The notes below the pieces were generated by a model, which was given only the letters and a program-made list of their open reading frames with translations, was not told where the DNA came from and did not search any database. A stretch of DNA of 64,000 nt from Escherichia coli (GTDB lineage Bacteria > Pseudomonadota > Gammaproteobacteria > Enterobacterales > Enterobacteriaceae): the NCBI RefSeq assembly GCF_003790525.1, contig NZ_CP033634.1; one strand, written 5' to 3'. The position numbers and the translations under genes were made by a program. Shown here piece by piece: positions 11,596 to 18,241 of the stretch (positions within the stretch are counted from its first letter, which is position 1; every line of letters starts with the position of its first letter).

Positions 11596-12774
11596 TCATA
11601 ACTGGGCTACTGGCAAATCTGTCCATCTGGTGGTATACGCAGGAGAAAGCATTTCCCGTTTCATTTGCCATTCAGGGGCGGTTCCTCGCCCCGCAAACCA
11701 CACTTTCCCTTTTCCAGACTGGTTCAGTTCATCGAGTGTTTTCATTAACTTTTCGCTGTTTTTACGGGGCTGGATCTCATCAAATAATCCCGGCTGCGCT
11801 ATACCCGATGGTGTGAAATCAGCCAGCATGACTCCTGCCTTCATATAGCGGTACCCTTCACGCCAGACATGGTTTAAGGCTCTGCATGCGGCGGCAATAA
11901 TGTCCCGGCTGTCCTGTGTGGGCAATGGAAGCTTTTCCACAGCGGCATTGCTGTAACAGGGTTCTTTTACTGCAAAGGGGGATGTCCGTACAAATGTCGT
12001 CACCTGCCGGCAATACTGACGTTCCCCACGTAGTTTCTCTGCGGCCCGCTCTGCATACTGAACAACAGCCTGGTGCATGGCATCTTTGTCTGTGATTCGT
12101 TCACCAAAACTGCGACTACAGACAATCTGCTGTTTTGCCGGTGGTGCTTCTTCCAGGGATATGCAGGACTCGCCGTTGAGTTCGCGTACCGTACGCTCAA
12201 GAATGACGCTGAAGTTTTTCCGGATGAATGCCGTGTTAGCCTGCGCCAGCTGCAGTGCTGTGTTAATACCCAGCGCATTCAGCTTTTCCGTCAGTCTGCG
12301 TCCTACTCCCCAGACCTCACCAACTGGCTGCAGCCCCAGTAGCTTCAAGGTCCGATTACGGTTTTCTGCCGTCAGCGCGACCACTCCGGAAAACTGTGGC
12401 CATTGCTTTGTTGCCCACTGTGCACTTTTAGCCAGCGTTTTTGTAGGCGCAATGCCCACCCCCATGGTGAGTCCTGTCCAGCTCTTTACCTGTTCCCTGA
12501 GCTGATGACCAAAAACCTCCGGAGAGATGCAATGATTTATCCCCCGCAAATCAATGAACATTTCATCAATTGAGTAGGGCTCAACTGCGGGAGAAAGCGA
12601 CTCCAGAACAGCCATAACCCGTTGGCTCATGCTGTGGTACAGCGCATAATTGCTGGAAAATACATGTATTTTCTTCTCCAGGCGCATTTGTCTCACCTGA
12701 AACCAGGGCTGCCCCATTCTGATGCCAAGGGCTTTTGCCTCCGGGCTGCGCGCGATCACACAGCCATCGTTATT
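11596..12774 (-). pseudogene. impB: impB/umuC-like error-prone DNA polymerase (Y-family), 3' portion lacking the first 33 codons
   Basis: Translation from NNDGCVIARSPEAKALGIRMGQPWF... aligns with UmuC/MucB residues about 32 onward; upstream in-frame sequence is unrelated and stops. Confidence 0.85.
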
Positions 12775-13182
12775 CACCGTTACACGTTTTACACCCTAAA
12801 ATGTTATGAAAAACCTTTCTGAACAAAGCCTGTAGCCTGATTTGTGTAATTCTCATCGATATGAAGCAATAAGTTGAGAATTTTTTAATATGGGGCTCAT
12901 TAATTCTCAACAATTAAGTGTGGCATAACATTAATGTCTAAAACTTCTCAGTCTCGCATGCCAGATTGGTTCGTAGTCGTCGAGTGGTGATTGTGACAAT
13001 AAAGATCGAAACTTATGCTTTATCAACATGGCTATCTTAGATAAGTGTGCCAACAAAGTTTGAAACACACTTTTGCCCCATTATGAGTTACAACCCAAAG
13101 TTCAAACAGTGATGTTGAGGTAACTTTGATATACAAAAAGTAATGAACAGCAAAAGATAAAAGCTGAGCCAATTTGTTCACA

Positions 13183-14271
13183 CTATTCAGTTAGCATGAG
13201 CTTTGCTTTAAGAAACGTAAGTTTGATGTCATCAGTTTTGGTGAACTTGAACTTACCGTCAGTAGAAGCGTTAAACCTTTCAAAATAGTATTCAAGTAGC
13301 GGATCGTACCTGCCACCGTGAACCCAAGTGTAGAACTTACCAAGTTCATAACGTAACTCTTTATCAAGTTCAGATCTTATTCTCAGCTCACTATCGTTTG
13401 CTAGTTCAACGATGTTCATTTCTTGAAGGTTCGTCTTAATCTCTTCAATCAGAGGTAGGAGGGATTCTTTATACTTATCAGCCAATGGTACAAGGTCAGC
13501 GTCAGTTACTTCCGCTTCAAAAATCATAATCAGGTCGTCAATCTCCCCGTTATAGTAATCGTTATCTAATCGTTTTTCTGACTCAGTACGAAGAACATAG
13601 AGTTGTTCTAAAGGATCTAATTTAGTCTCAATTTTTTCTTTTGAAAGTTTGTGTTGATACTCAACAAACAGCGTTTCAATCCTATCAGCAATAACATCAA
13701 GATACTCATATCGAATTCTGAGAAATTCCAACAGCTCATTGATATTGAGGTTTAACGTTAGGTCTTCTTTACCCACATCTCGACTGTACAAATGAACACT
13801 CAAATCGCCAGTGTTGAAATGACTTTGAAATGGCCAACTTGCGAAACGCTTTGAGTTTTCTTGATTCAGATTTACGGGGTGAGCACCGAAACACGCCCTG
13901 ATAGTTTTAAAATAATTATTATCATCTTCATTAGCGAAGAGGCGATCTTTGAAACATTTCTTTTCACCATAAAACGGATCTTTCTTATCAGTTATAAACA
14001 CTCGATGGAGTTGTTTTATTGACTCGAAAATAAGGTCTATTGAAGAGATCAGAGAGTAGACCTGCATACATCTACTATCTATGTTCTTGTCAAACTCAGG
14101 CGCATTTTCTAAGTGGCGAACAGAGACAGAGATCCAATCCATAGCAGAGCAAACGAGGTTAAAAAGATTCTTACCACCTTTATCTTTGTATATTTGATAC
14201 ACAAAGCTAGAGTTTGAGTTAACTAAGTCTCGAAAATCACTGATTTTATCGTCACTAACAACGTTTCTCAT
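13183..14271 (-). CDS. Hypothetical protein, 362 aa, AT-rich cargo gene divergent from the PIN-like/AbiH-like pair
   Basis: Long uninterrupted ORF in low-GC DNA; contains an R-x5-H motif (RACFGAH) that could be HEPN-like, but no family confidently recognised. Confidence 0.65.
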   Translation of the reverse strand: MRNVVSDDKISDFRDLVNSNSSFVYQIYKDKGGKNLFNLVCSAMDWISVSVRHLENAPEFDKNIDSRCMQVYSLISSIDLIFESIKQLHRVFITDKKDPFYGEKKCFKDRLFANEDDNNYFKTIRACFGAHPVNLNQENSKRFASWPFQSHFNTGDLSVHLYSRDVGKEDLTLNLNINELLEFLRIRYEYLDVIADRIETLFVEYQHKLSKEKIETKLDPLEQLYVLRTESEKRLDNDYYNGEIDDLIMIFEAEVTDADLVPLADKYKESLLPLIEEIKTNLQEMNIVELANDSELRIRSELDKELRYELGKFYTWVHGGRYDPLLEYYFERFNASTDGKFKFTKTDDIKLTFLKAKLMLTE

Positions 14272-14706
14272 TCTCTAATCGCCTTCTAACCAATTGAAAA
14301 TATTATGAAGAATGGCAAAAATGATAGTGATAGTTCTTCAATTCTTCAACTTCTTTTTTGATTTGAAGTGAAGTGATACGCTGGGTTTTGTCACTTAGTT
14401 AGATTTGAACGATGAGGATCTCTAGCCAGTTGTATTGCTAGGCATTATCCGAAGACAAATAGAAGAACTGAACCTCGAAGTAACTTTTATCCTAGGACGT
14501 GCTGAAGCTGGTCTCCGCAAACTTGTGATCTAGGCCAACACGCCTTTGCCCCCAAAACATTTAAAGCTATCCCTCATCACACCTTGCTAACTCGTTACTT
14601 GCCCGAATTTTTGTAATGAGCCAATATGCTATTAGTTGGTTATCCACTTAATTGTTTTATCAATTTATTTGATGACAATTTACACCATGTGTTCAAGGTA
14701 TTGATT

Positions 14707-15807
14707 ATGGAATTACAGACAAGGCTAGTTTTTATCGATACAAGCGCTTTTGAAAAGAAAAACTATCAATTTGGGCAACACGCTCTTGGTCGTCTTCAAG
14801 AACTAATTGAGGATGAGAAAATCCACTTGCTCATTACTGATGTGACAAGGAAAGAGATCGACTCCCATCTCAAACACAAATCTGAAGAAGCAGCTTCTAT
14901 GATAAAGAAGATGCAAAGAGATGCGATGTTCCTAAGAAACACCCCCGACCTTGATTGTCATGGCATCTTCACCAAGATTAAAGGTGATGATATTTATGCT
15001 GTTATCAGTGAAAAATTTGATGATTTCGTCGAAAACGGCTACGTCGAAACAATTGATGTAAGCACTGTTAACCCTCAAGTTGTATTTGATGCTTACTTCA
15101 ACAACCTTCCTCCTTTTGGCAAAGAATCAAAAAAGCACGAGTTTCCTGATGCATTTGCGCTAGAAGCTATTAAACAGGTGAGCTTGGCTAGAGGATATTC
15201 AGCCTATATCGTTAGTGACGACGGCGATATGAAATCATTCTGTGAGAAAGAAGATAACTTCATTCATCTTGAAAATGTCGATGACCTAATTGACTTGATT
15301 GTTCGAAGCGACAAAGCGTACGAAGAACCAGCCAAATTTGCTGATGAAATATTCGAACAACTCCTAGAACAAATCAAAGCGGATGCCCTGCAAGCTCTCG
15401 AAGATGGCGAGTTCAACTATGAAAACGCAGATCCTTTCGATGAGACTATCAATTCTATAGAAATCAACTCGGTGAATGTTGGGAAGAAAAACTTACAGAA
15501 TGTCGATGCCGAGTGGGCTGAATACGAAGTAGAATTTGAGGTGGTTGTTACGGCAGATTATCGATTCTCAGATTATGACCGTTCACCTTGGGACCCTGAA
15601 GACAAGCAATATGTATTCGTCTTGAGTAATGAGTCAACAGTAAAACACAAAGAAACATACACTGCCCACATAACACTTGCCTATACCGATGGATTAAAAG
15701 CTAACGCATACATTGAAGAGTTTTACTTCCAAGATACATATTTTGAGCTGACTGATAATGACTCCGAAGTCATTAGCTTCAAAGAACTAGATATCAACGG
15801 TGAATGA
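14707..15807 (+). CDS. PIN-like domain protein (DUF4935-like), 366 aa
   Basis: N-terminus MELQTRLVFIDTSAFEKKNYQF... resembles PIN-like DUF4935 openings; stop TGA at 15805-15807 lies one base before the start of the next gene. Confidence 0.65.
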   Translation: MELQTRLVFIDTSAFEKKNYQFGQHALGRLQELIEDEKIHLLITDVTRKEIDSHLKHKSEEAASMIKKMQRDAMFLRNTPDLDCHGIFTKIKGDDIYAVISEKFDDFVENGYVETIDVSTVNPQVVFDAYFNNLPPFGKESKKHEFPDAFALEAIKQVSLARGYSAYIVSDDGDMKSFCEKEDNFIHLENVDDLIDLIVRSDKAYEEPAKFADEIFEQLLEQIKADALQALEDGEFNYENADPFDETINSIEINSVNVGKKNLQNVDAEWAEYEVEFEVVVTADYRFSDYDRSPWDPEDKQYVFVLSNESTVKHKETYTAHITLAYTDGLKANAYIEEFYFQDTYFELTDNDSEVISFKELDINGE

Positions 15808-15808
15808 C

Positions 15809-16277
15809 ATGAAGCTATATGTAATAGGTAATGGCTTTGATGTTCATCATGGCCTTGACACTAGGTATACATCTTTTGGGCTTTATCTCAAAAATAACTA
15901 CTGGGAAACTTATGAACTATTGCTCGACTATTACGGGTTTGCTGACTTAGACCCAGATTTTCCAACAACAATGTCAGACCCTTTATGGTCTGAATTTGAA
16001 ACGAGTATGTCACTGCTTGATAAAGATTCAGTTTTGGAAGCAAACATGGATGCAATGCCAAACTATTCTTCAGATGACTTTCGAGACAGAGACCGATACA
16101 CGCTTGAAATTGAGATGGAGCGAATACTTGGCCTTCTAACCACTGAACTGTATAAAGCATTCAAAGAGTTCATTTTGGCTGTACAGTTTCCTCAGTTTGA
16201 TCACAGCCGATCAGTAAACATTGATAGAGACGCTGTTTACCTCACATTCAACTACACAGATACGCTTTCTCAATACT
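15809..16277 (+). pseudogene. AbiH-like abortive-infection protein, N-terminal 156 codons, truncated by IS2
   Basis: MKLYVIGNGFDVHHGLDTRYTSF matches the AbiH family N-terminal signature; reading frame runs into the IS2 left end at 16278, so the ORF-track tail to 16327 is IS2-encoded. Confidence 0.7.
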
Positions 16278-16368
16278 TAGACTGGCTCCCTGAATCTCCA
16301 GACAACCAGTATCACTTAAATAAGTGATAGTCTTAATACTAGTTTTTAGACTAGTCATTGGAGAACAG

Positions 16369-16734
16369 ATGATTGATGTCTTAGGGCCGGAGAAACGCAG
16401 ACGGCGTACCACACAGGAAAAGATCGCAATTGTTCAGCAGAGCTTTGAACCGGGGATGACGGTCTCCCTCGTTGCCCGGCAACATGGTGTAGCAGCCAGC
16501 CAGTTATTTCTCTGGCGTAAGCAATACCAGGAAGGAAGTCTTACTGCTGTCGCCGCCGGAGAACAGGTTGTTCCTGCCTCTGAACTTGCTGCCGCCATGA
16601 AGCAGATTAAAGAACTCCAGCGCCTGCTCGGCAAGAAAACGATGGAAAATGAACTCCTCAAAGAAGCCGTTGAATATGGACGGGCAAAAAAGTGGATAGC
16701 GCACGCGCCCTTATTGCCCGGGGATGGGGAGTAA
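16369..16734 (+). CDS. insC: IS2 OrfA (InsC)
   Basis: [56 protein letters not shown]... Confidence 0.9.
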
Positions 16735-17597
16735 GCTTAGTCAGCCGTTGTCTCCGGGTGTCGCGTGCGCAGTTGCACGTCATTCTCAGACGAACCGATG
16801 ACTGGATGGATGGCCGCCGCAGTCGTCACACTGATGATACGGATGTGCTTCTCCGTATACACCATGTTATCGGAGAGCTGCCCACGTATGGTTATCGTCG
16901 GGTATGGGCGCTGCTTCGCAGACAGGCAGAACTTGATGGTATGCCTGCGATCAATGCCAAACGTGTTTACCGGATCATGCGCCAGAATGCGCTGTTGCTT
17001 GAGCGAAAACCTGCTGTACCGCCATCGAAACGGGCACATACAGGCAGAGTGGCCGTGAAAGAAAGCAATCAGCGATGGTGCTCTGACGGGTTCGAGTTCT
17101 GCTGTGATAACGGAGAGAGACTGCGTGTCACGTTCGCGCTGGACTGCTGTGATCGTGAGGCACTGCACTGGGCGGTCACTACCGGCGGCTTCAACAGTGA
17201 AACAGTACAGGACGTCATGCCAGGAGCGGTGGAACGCCGCTTCGGCAACGATCTTCCGTCGTCTCCAGTGGAGTGGCTGACGGATAATGGTTCATGCTAC
17301 CGGGCTAATGAAACACGCCAGTTCGCCCGGATGTTGGGACTTGAACCGAAGAACACGGCGGTGCGGAGTCCGGAGAGTAACGGAATAGCAGAGAGCTTCG
17401 TGAAAACGATAAAGCGTGACTACATCAGTATCATGCCCAAACCAGACGGGTTAACGGCAGCAAAGAACCTTGCAGAGGCGTTCGAGCATTATAACGAATG
17501 GCATCCGCATAGTGCGCTGGGTTATCGCTCGCCACGGGAATATCTGCGGCAGCGGGCTTGTAATGGGTTAAGTGATAACAGATGTCTGGAAATATAG
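16692..17597 (+). CDS. insD: IS2 OrfB (InsD), DDE transposase; expressed with OrfA by programmed -1 frameshift
   Basis: ORF overlaps orfA in the -1 frame; contains the IS3-family DDE region ([17 protein letters not shown]). Confidence 0.9.
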
Positions 17598-17705
17598 GGG
17601 CAAATCCAGTGATATCCAATTCATTCAGTCTGTAAACACAATAGTGGACATTCTCACATTGTCAAACGTGTATAGTTAGAGAGTGGAAGTAAAAGTGTAT
17701 GGGTG

Positions 17706-17804
17706 GTTATTGCTGAGTACGATGACCGGTTCGTTGCGAAGGTCCGGGCGGAAAACTTTTTCACATGAGGCGTAGAAACTGTTGATATCAGCCAGTGCAA
17801 ACAT
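17706..17804 (-). pseudogene. impB: impB 5' fragment (first 33 codons) separated from the rest by the 4.9-kb insertion
   Basis: Minus strand reads ATG TTT GCA CTG GCT GAT ATC... = MFALADINSFYASCEKVFRPDLRNEPVIVLSNN; start overlaps impA stop (TGATG). Confidence 0.8.
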
Positions 17805-18241
17805 CAGCGTAACTCCCGCGTCCTGTGTATCACGTGAGTGACAACACCAAAAATACAGATGTTTTCCGGATACAGTGTGCGGAACTCCGGGCTGTCTGAA
17901 ACCGGCTCCAGTGCCGGGCGTGGGCGCAACAGCAGTCGTTTGACGGTGAACTCACCATCGATCTCAGCGATAACGATGTCCCCGTGTTGTGGTTTTTCGG
18001 CCCTGTCCACTACCAGCAGATCACCATTCTGCACGCCAGCCTGGTTCATCGATTCACCGCTGGCGCGCAGAAAGAAGGTGGCTGCAGGTCTGCTGATGCA
18101 ATAGCTGTTCAGATCCAGTTCCTGCTCAGCATAATCAGTGGCAGGCGAAGGAAAACCGGCCAGGCAACGATCGGCAAACAACGGTCGCACGTAACTGTCA
18201 TTGCCTGAAGGGTCAGCCGGACGGTGATAAACGGTACTCAT
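17804..18241 (-). CDS. impA: ImpA (UmuD/MucA-like, LexA-type S24 peptidase fold)
   Basis: 145 aa; FPSPATDYAEQELDLN and ASGESMNQAGVQNGDLLVVD align with UmuD. Confidence 0.9.
   Translation of the reverse strand: MSTVYHRPADPSGNDSYVRPLFADRCLAGFPSPATDYAEQELDLNSYCISRPAATFFLRASGESMNQAGVQNGDLLVVDRAEKPQHGDIVIAEIDGEFTVKRLLLRPRPALEPVSDSPEFRTLYPENICIFGVVTHVIHRTRELR

Follow-up and report, generated by a model that had tools for sequence, protein, structure and literature searches.

The gene and its copies

In a 64-kb stretch of Escherichia coli DNA (64,000 nucleotides of contig NZ_CP033634.1, assembly GCF_003790525.1; hereafter the window), we analysed an open reading frame (ORF) whose product is a candidate single-gene anti-phage defence protein:

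13183..14271, minus strand: gene for a 362-aa protein, 42.7 kDa, pI 5.05, no transmembrane segment

When the window had first been read from its letters alone (the original prediction), this locus was described as a long clean ORF on the opposite strand, lying in AT-rich DNA. The ORF listing recovered it intact, with exactly these coordinates, an ATG start and 362 codons, and the AT-rich setting was borne out, since the GC content of successive 1-kb intervals between 13 and 16 kb was 0.364, 0.376 and 0.391 (36-39%), as compared to 0.49-0.54 (49-54%) in the flanks. The encoded protein is acidic, hydrophilic and soluble. It is identical to WP_001459672.1 (closely related records), and the whole window matches plasmid NZ_CP129283.1 of E. 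coli GZM7 with 100% identity, the ORF being called 'hypothetical protein' in that record.

The gene was found in 28 of 5,426 complete E. coli genomes (about 0.5%), at 24 chromosomal and 9 plasmid places, and all 33 copies are intact and at least 99.8% identical. In at least three genomes (SY3626_hybrid, SCU-106 and E18) a chromosomal and a plasmid copy occur together. The plasmids concerned are conjugative ones of the IncI, IncF and other groups, from E. coli, Shigella, Salmonella, Klebsiella and Proteus.

At E<=1e-3, 386 relatives were retrieved from a database clustered at 90% identity and 365 from a library clustered at 50% identity, 255 of the latter at E<=1e-10. They are nearly all full length (~360 aa), extend down to about 27% identity and share invariant columns. 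Because hundreds of full-length relatives with invariant columns exist, the 362-codon ORF is a real gene, encoding a conserved and widespread protein. The 365 clusters come from marine Gammaproteobacteria, Enterobacteria and Firmicutes, and their members are named 'hypothetical protein' throughout. Copies that are split or truncated, in E. coli and in Providencia, are also on record in UniProt, and one member (P0129; L021 783-2654) bears a 256-aa N-terminal extension (MKNQYFGDINDYRKYGLL...), which gave no match in Pfam, PADLOC or NCBIfam.

Conservation and predicted structure

The single 362-aa sequence had no match in PADLOC, NCBIfam, PHROGs, Pfam or the PDB sequences, in agreement with the earlier remark that it belongs to no recognisable family. 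PADLOC had been proposed as a check in the original prediction; run on this protein, it matched no model, and PADLOC-DB v2.0.0, which includes all lactococcal Abi types and the PDC candidates, contained 0 families at E<=1.

Conservation was evaluated on an alignment of 82 diverse members having 26-81% identity to the query. Four residues are invariant (W46, D79, D117 and H131), and S42, D45, E83, F107, F121, R125, F128, A130, A144-S145-W146, R234, Q283 and Y308 are conserved in at least 90% of the members. The most conserved stretch of the family (residues 117-135) contains R125-x5-H131. The AlphaFold2 model built on the 82-sequence alignment has a mean predicted local distance difference test score (pLDDT) of 94.9 and a predicted template modelling score (pTM) of 0.88, and consists of two parts:

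13636..14271, minus strand: N-terminal domain, residues 1-212, a long-helix bundle with a small beta-meander; the more conserved half, with conserved W46, D79, D117, H131, S42, D45, E83, R125 and S145-W146
13186..13635, minus strand: C-terminal all-helical domain, residues 213-362; the more variable half
13879..13899, minus strand: R125-A-C-F-G-A-H131 (R-x5-H), at the end of helix 117-129 and within residues 117-135

The N-terminal part is made of long helices (36-55, 64-92, 117-129 and 177-211) and a three-stranded beta-meander (141-175), and a separate AlphaFold model of residues 1-214 agrees with it (pLDDT 93.6). Mean identity to the query is 41% in the N-terminal domain versus 30% in the C-terminal domain. 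Because the C-terminal domain is the more variable of the two, we propose that it may be the sensing or regulatory part.

When the predicted fold was compared with the PDB, nothing specific was matched. Foldseek against AFDB50 returned solely 'Uncharacterized protein' entries, and with these the reach of the family widens to include Bacillus, Paenibacillus, Clostridia, Lactobacillaceae and a mollicute. The structural check suggested at the outset thus yielded a confident model with uncharacterized AFDB proteins as its sole specific matches.

Association with defence systems

Eleven independent contexts of the gene and its homologues were inspected by hand. In 7 of the 11, a recognised defence system or candidate, identified with PADLOC, NCBIfam and Pfam (AbiH by annotation), is adjacent to the gene or within about 3 kb. 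One of the seven is the window itself, where the neighbours are PIN and AbiH. On the plasmid of Vibrio pelagius the gene stands beside a SEC-C protein, an Abi_2 gene (1.8 kb away) and a Gabija system (GajA, E=0; GajB, 5.9e-249). Gabija is also found 193 bp from the Moritella viscosa homologue (GajA, 4.6e-226; GajB, 2.5e-228), with a 969-aa UvrD-type helicase and a homologue of Tiamat TmtA (E=0) downstream. A metagenomic genome carries the homologue 52 nt downstream of Avs2 (1434 bits; cutoff 1000), in a small integrase-bounded island, while the homologue of Marinomonas balearica adjoins a KAP-NTPase matching PDC-S20 and PifA, and that of Photobacterium leiognathi lies 2.8 kb from a Card1-type CARF nuclease. 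In the seventh context, from an uncultured bacterium, the C-terminus of the family member (P0252; L022 7313-9142) is fused in frame to an AbiEi domain (DUF6577; PADLOC AbiEi, 1.9e-39) and the next gene is AbiEii (5.1e-70). The fusion represents a chimeric AbiE antitoxin or else an artefact in which metagenome assembly has joined two genes. The Moritella locus (L023 1-17125) is a dense defence island, in which a radical-SAM gene and an HTH-PIN_4-ankyrin protein were also observed.

Two of the other four contexts, in Photobacterium toruni and Vibrio vulnificus, have only a sub-threshold Avs1c-like neighbour. Here the homologues (P0120 and P0118) lie in different islands, one with VPA1267 and RecD2 genes and the other beside a prophage integrase, and both are followed, about 250 nt downstream, by one and the same 577-aa gene (L005 9358-11091; L025 9359-11092), the N-terminus of which is Avs1c-like, below the NCBIfam cutoff. 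The homologue and the 577-aa gene may represent a two-gene variant in that subclade. The third is an accessory locus of E. coli phage phi458, between the tail genes and the Pin invertase, and the fourth is the variable region of an SXT-like integrative and conjugative element (ICE) of Edwardsiella ictaluri, where the homologue is placed between traN and ssb-bet-exo, beside an endonuclease-I gene. As a rough estimate, rather than a measured control, a ~10-kb window around a random gene rarely contains a defence system. On that estimate, and for this small hand-inspected sample, the recurrence beside defence genes is strong guilt by association.

The same protein had been flagged computationally. 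Table S10 of the DefensePredictor study (DeWeirdt, Mahoney & Laub, Science 2026; PMC13092281) gives WP_001459672.1 (362 aa) the label 'Putative novel defense gene / Predicted novel defense gene', with a mean log-odds of 12.36 (range 9.9-13.7) against a stringent cutoff of 4, and the neighbouring PIN protein WP_031619804.1 (log-odds 12.6) was also scored as a novel defence gene. In that work 45% of 94 cloned units were validated, and the validation rate rises with the log-odds (PMC13092281). In its supplements WP_001459672.1 appears in the prediction table only, and neither the cloned units (94) nor the validated systems (42) include it; structure, motif, family and context of the protein are absent from that paper, the entry being a prediction. 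A full-text literature search for the accession found no other paper. The gene is a good candidate for a new single-gene defence family, one that is no surprise in kind.

The recurrent location beside established defence systems in unrelated genomes, together with the published prediction, supports a defence role, and on these grounds we regard an anti-phage function of the 362-aa gene as probable. The original prediction had called a defence or toxin role plausible; the Gabija, Avs2, AbiE, KAP-NTPase/PDC-S20, Card1 and Abi_2 neighbours give this idea much better support, and the machine-learning score for exactly this protein backs it as well.

The contexts could also be read differently. Every one of them lies in mobile or variable DNA, be it a recombinase island, the variable region of an ICE, the accessory locus of a prophage or an integrase island. 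Such DNA carries more than defence genes, and the protein could be a mobile-element accessory that does not act on phages, such as a factor for anti-defence or counter-defence, one that excludes competing plasmids or islands, or a regulator. In addition to the 45% overall validation of DefensePredictor units, 6 of 13 hand-picked cargo candidates gave no protection in the study of Gamma-Mobile-Trio (GMT) islands (Mahata et al., bioRxiv 10.1101/2023.03.28.534373). However, Gabija, Avs2, AbiE and the KAP NTPase are immediately adjacent in chromosomal islands, and the invariant residues, catalytic in appearance, speak against a protein that is merely structural or regulatory. A phage-borne anti-defence role is opposed by the rarity of the family in phage genomes, with 8 loci in 2.9 million IMG/VR contigs and 2 in 50,697 phage records. 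Taken together, we consider an accessory of this kind quite unlikely.

The setting recalls that of GAPS2 of the GMT islands (Mahata et al., bioRxiv 10.1101/2023.03.28.534373), likewise a domainless single-gene cargo that stands beside defence genes, in Vibrionaceae and Enterobacteria, on the variable side of an island with a site-specific recombinase; one homologue of our gene lies in an island with VPA1267-family and RecD2-like genes. Identity with a GAPS protein was rejected, because the family hidden Markov model reached at best 3.8 bits against the N-terminal ~90-126 residues of GAPS2, 3, 5 and 7-13. GAPS1, 4 and 6 are set apart by description, as they carry PD-(D/E)xK or TPR-PIN domains (bioRxiv 10.1101/2023.03.28.534373). 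The island of P. toruni, which carries a VPA1267-family gene, is possibly a GMT island.

A single-gene unit

The following features surround the gene on its own unit and on the upstream side:

13074..14558, no strand assigned: unit shared with Vibrio pelagius plasmid pATCC25916, comprising the gene with flanks of 109 bp (3') and 287 bp (5'), 94.7% nt identity
14272..14706, no strand assigned: divergent intergenic region shared with the PIN gene, with sigma-70-like hexamers on the minus strand at 14349-14321
14626..15807, plus strand: neighbouring PIN-domain gene, alternative start at 14707; an independent module with abiH
15809..16277, plus strand: 5' part of an AbiH-family gene, cut off by the insertion sequence (IS) IS2

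The nearest relatives of the 362-aa protein, at 88% aa identity, belong to Vibrio and Cobetia, and since the 1.5-kb unit is also 94.7% identical to the V. pelagius plasmid, the gene originated in marine Gammaproteobacteria. The V. pelagius copy of the unit stands in a different neighbourhood, devoid of PIN-AbiH, and therefore the gene travels on its own. Conversely, PIN-AbiH is present at 92% nt identity on a conjugative plasmid of Shewanella baltica from which the 362-aa gene is absent. No neighbour gene is common to all 11 contexts, and neither conserved upstream DNA nor a 5' regulatory element was found among the homologues. To judge from these comparisons, the gene behaves as a single-gene unit without a conserved partner.

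These data bear directly on the tie to an Abi-like pair that had been drawn from the position of the gene: the tie comes down to adjacency, as PIN-AbiH and the 362-aa gene each occur without the other. The 362-aa protein could in principle be the third component of one system with PIN and AbiH, such as a sensor or the antitoxin that counters the PIN nuclease, given that the three lie side by side as cargo in each of the 23 plasmids, and in the E. coli chromosomes, that carry the island described below, that they have a divergent promoter region in common and that the PIN protein was also scored as a novel defence gene. Nevertheless, S. baltica has PIN-AbiH alone and V. pelagius the 362-aa gene alone, an adjacent PIN-AbiH pair occurs in 0 of 9 other contexts, and the sole PIN protein seen elsewhere, the Moritella HTH-PIN_4-ankyrin protein, is ~4 kb away and non-adjacent. 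Moreover, abiH is destroyed in the window and the 362-aa gene is intact. A three-component system is accordingly very improbable.

The 435-bp length given earlier for the divergent spacer stands if the PIN gene starts at ATG 14707, whereas it shrinks to 354 bp with a start at 14626. RefSeq is ambiguous on this point, as it contains both a 366-aa form (WP_031619804.1; start at 14707, preceded by AAGG) and a 393-aa form (WP_011264072.1; start at 14626). The sigma-70-like hexamers within the spacer are not above shuffle expectation, and the spacer has neither an Rfam match nor repeats.

The flanks of the gene contain no conserved small ORF and no inverted repeats, only a single trivial tandem repeat, and Rfam gave one sub-threshold hit; for this reason an RNA antitoxin, a retron or a repeat element in the flanks was rejected. 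The same observations concern the explanation that the protein is the toxin of a toxin-antitoxin or addiction module that keeps the island or plasmid stable and whose antitoxin, a small protein or an RNA, has escaped recognition. The fusion of one member to an AbiEi-type antitoxin domain agrees with such a module, and so does the interruption of the gene by IS3 in plasmid p199, as expected of a costly gene. In contrast, no conserved small ORF, tandem repeat or Rfam RNA lies beside the gene, no upstream or downstream partner is conserved across contexts, and every one of the 33 E. coli records holds an intact copy, so that we give this explanation very little credence.

We also observed that a GCCCC-containing motif bounds the 1.5-kb unit on both sides in both genomes (TTTGCCCCATTATGA and CGCCTTTGCCCCCAAAAC), at 13072-13086 and 14541-14558 of the window and at about 7994-8010 and 9383-9400 of the V. 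pelagius locus (L002). In the 64-kb window TTTGCCCCMWW occurs only at these two unit ends, as compared to 0.47 occurrences expected, and 7 of 100 shuffles reach 2. The motif pair may be a cassette boundary or a recombination site.

The R-x5-H motif and the proposed mechanism

The original prediction had pointed, as a weak hint, to RACFGAH as a possible sign of a HEPN-type RNase. The R-x4-6-H motif that characterises the HEPN superfamily is indeed present and conserved, with R125 in 98% and H131 in 100% of the 82 members and a spacing of 5. In HEPN domains this motif is located at the end of the third core helix, a conserved acidic residue is found in helix-2, typically within E-x3-[KR], an insert often separates helices 2 and 3, a polar N/D/H usually comes right after the motif Arg, and in Csx1 a beta-hairpin directly follows the motif (PMC3710099). 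Our model puts R125 at the end of helix 117-129 and H131 in the loop that comes next; helix 64-92 bears D79 and E83, a 24-residue insert (93-116) separates these two helices, and the beta-meander comes after the motif. At the level of helix and strand boundaries the predicted secondary structure fits the published HEPN layout, a HEPN-like packing of the four helices being putative.

We lean slightly towards the following explanation as a whole: the 362-aa protein would be a self-contained single-gene anti-phage protein of the abortive-infection type, carried as cargo at the far end of a site-specific recombinase island inserted in umuC. The conserved N-terminal helical domain would be the effector. 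Its active site would consist of R125 and H131, where the third core helix ends, of D79 and E83 on the second helix, and of D117, and the simplest reading of such a site is a metal-independent RNase of HEPN-like type. Until a phage component is sensed, the more variable C-terminal helical domain would hold the effector inactive, and activation would then stop the growth of the infected cell. In the window IS2 has trimmed the island and left the 362-aa gene intact.

An experimental precedent for such a mechanism is HepS of prophage Gifsy-1, a solo-HEPN abortive-infection protein that is silent by default and acts both as sensor and as effector (Sargen et al., Nature 2026; PMC13043305). Like the proposed protein, HepS consists of one polypeptide, lacks a partner gene, comes from a mobile element and possesses R-x4-6-H. 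There is also a likeness to Abi_2 (AbiD-AbiF; PF07751), which are single genes of about 330-390 aa in defence islands and whose RNRCAH motif is, as RACFGAH, of the R-x-x-x-A-H type. They differ in that the PADLOC Abi models were unmatched and the hhalign probability was below 1% with both the full-length and the N-domain alignments; since hmmscan also gave no hit, membership in Abi_2 was rejected.

Several points weigh against the explanation set out above. As far as defence is concerned, no experiment on protection or toxicity by any family member was found in the literature searched, the association comes from 11 hand-inspected contexts, a small hand-picked sample as opposed to a genome-wide statistic, the E. 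ictaluri ICE has no recognisable defence gene near the homologue, and DefensePredictor uses neighbouring genes and GC content, so that its score is not fully independent of context (PMC13092281). As for the chemistry, a profile of the 82 members gave no match in the PDB sequences, a Pfam scan of each of the 82 alone found no match and no HEPN family, and hhalign against a purpose-built 34-sequence alignment of Abi_2, a HEPN family, returned probabilities of 0.3% and 0.1% with the two family alignments. Position 126, right after the motif Arg, is Ala in 89% of the members, not N/D/H, and the acidic residues of helix 64-92, D79 (100%) and E83 (90%), form the pattern D-x3-E-x3-Q, not E-x3-[KR]. 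To have three acidic residues that are invariant or nearly so is unusual for a HEPN site that works without metal, and the spatial clustering of R125, H131, D79, E83 and D117 is deduced from helical periodicity only.

Because of the Ala after Arg, the D-x3-E-x3-Q pattern and the null hhalign result against Abi_2, we did not file the family as HEPN. The earlier hint is half supported: the motif is conserved and placed as in HEPN domains, but position 126 departs from the usual residue and neither profile nor fold similarity to any established HEPN family was found. A solo-HEPN-like mechanism, with HEPN-like RNase chemistry, is kept tentatively as the likeliest single mechanism, rather improbable though it is when taken by itself.

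As the main alternative, the same residues could serve a defence effector with different chemistry, in which D79, D117, H131, E83, D45 and R125 would form a metal- or nucleotide-binding site on a helical bundle. The protein would then be a nuclease or phosphohydrolase of a new, metal-dependent kind, or an enzyme that depletes nucleotides. In favour of it are the three acidic residues and one His that are invariant or nearly so across the 82 members, and the Pfam, fold and hhalign searches, in which no HEPN relationship was detectable. The defence-island context fits it as well as it fits the HEPN-like effector, and, variants included, we hold it to be unlikely.

Extending the single-gene sensor-effector explanation to the whole family, it is conceivable, although on the doubtful side, that these proteins are widespread single-protein immune sensor-effectors with a previously unrecognised catalytic fold class, and that islands targeting umuC have carried them between marine bacteria and enterobacterial plasmids of clinical origin. 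That class would be either a strongly remodelled HEPN (long helices, R-x5-H with Ala after Arg, a beta-meander behind the motif) or an entirely new helical enzyme built around an invariant Asp-Asp-His-Arg set. If the defence explanation is true, the gene represents a single-gene defence family, compact at 1.1 kb, to which none of the characterised systems is related and which has an easily mutated catalytic-looking site. It would also bear on phage therapy and on the protection of hosts by resistance plasmids, and would mean that recombinase islands targeting umuC ferry defence cargo from marine Vibrionaceae to enterobacteria. If no protection is conferred, the gene would be a well-documented false positive for guilt by association and for language-model defence predictors.

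The carrier island in umuC

On the other side of the gene and beyond abiH, the window contains the following features:

11596..12777, minus strand: 3' part of a plasmid umuC homologue, starting near UmuC residue 31; the island end is at ~12.77 kb
16278..17608, plus strand: IS2, 1331 bp, an insertion associated with loss of the abiH 3' end and of four recombination genes
17609..17705, no strand assigned: remnant (~97 bp) of the recombinase-side end of the island, beside the umuC 5' stub and umuD
17804-18241, minus strand: umuD, adjoining the umuC 5' stub and the island remnant

Intact copies of the island, in the chromosome of E. coli NCTC86 and on an IncI-gamma/K1 Shigella plasmid, have one common layout: umuD, a 99-bp umuC stub, a tyrosine recombinase gene (509 aa), genes of 616, 663 and 146 aa, abiH, PIN, the 362-aa gene and then the remainder of umuC. 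Because of this layout, the 362-aa gene can be taken as the last cargo gene of a ~10-kb island that splits umuC near codon 31. The insertion spot (about codon 31) is the same in the chromosomal and plasmid umuC homologues. In the window IS2 replaces the span from mid-abiH to the recombinase gene, and the four recombination genes and the 3' end of abiH are lost. The presence of chromosomal and plasmid copies in one genome is as expected for a copy-out element that disables polymerase V.

The carrier resembles in architecture and target, near the 5' end of a umuC/rulB homologue, the integron-like elements specific for rulB/umuC (PMC4542609), as well as the GInts (PMC5385486) and strand-biased circularizing integrative elements (PMC10214605). 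As in these classes, it has a tyrosine recombinase end (the genes of 509, 616, 663 and 146 aa) and a variable cargo side, and occurs on plasmids and chromosomes; the likeness is one of gene order, sizes and target. The 509-aa protein is the sole island protein annotated as a recombinase, Pfam gave a weak integrase hint only (E 0.18) for the 616-aa protein and no match for the 663-aa protein. Identity of the E. coli island with a GMT island was rejected, because no GMT models were found with NCBIfam.

Finally, each of the cargo genes was seen to be inactivated by an insertion sequence somewhere: abiH by IS2 in the window, the 362-aa gene by IS3 in plasmid p199, and the PIN gene by IS5 at its 5' end in two plasmids of strain 97.3 (one of them NZ_CP061760.1). 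These hits, anecdotal as they are, fit a dispensable and possibly costly cargo.

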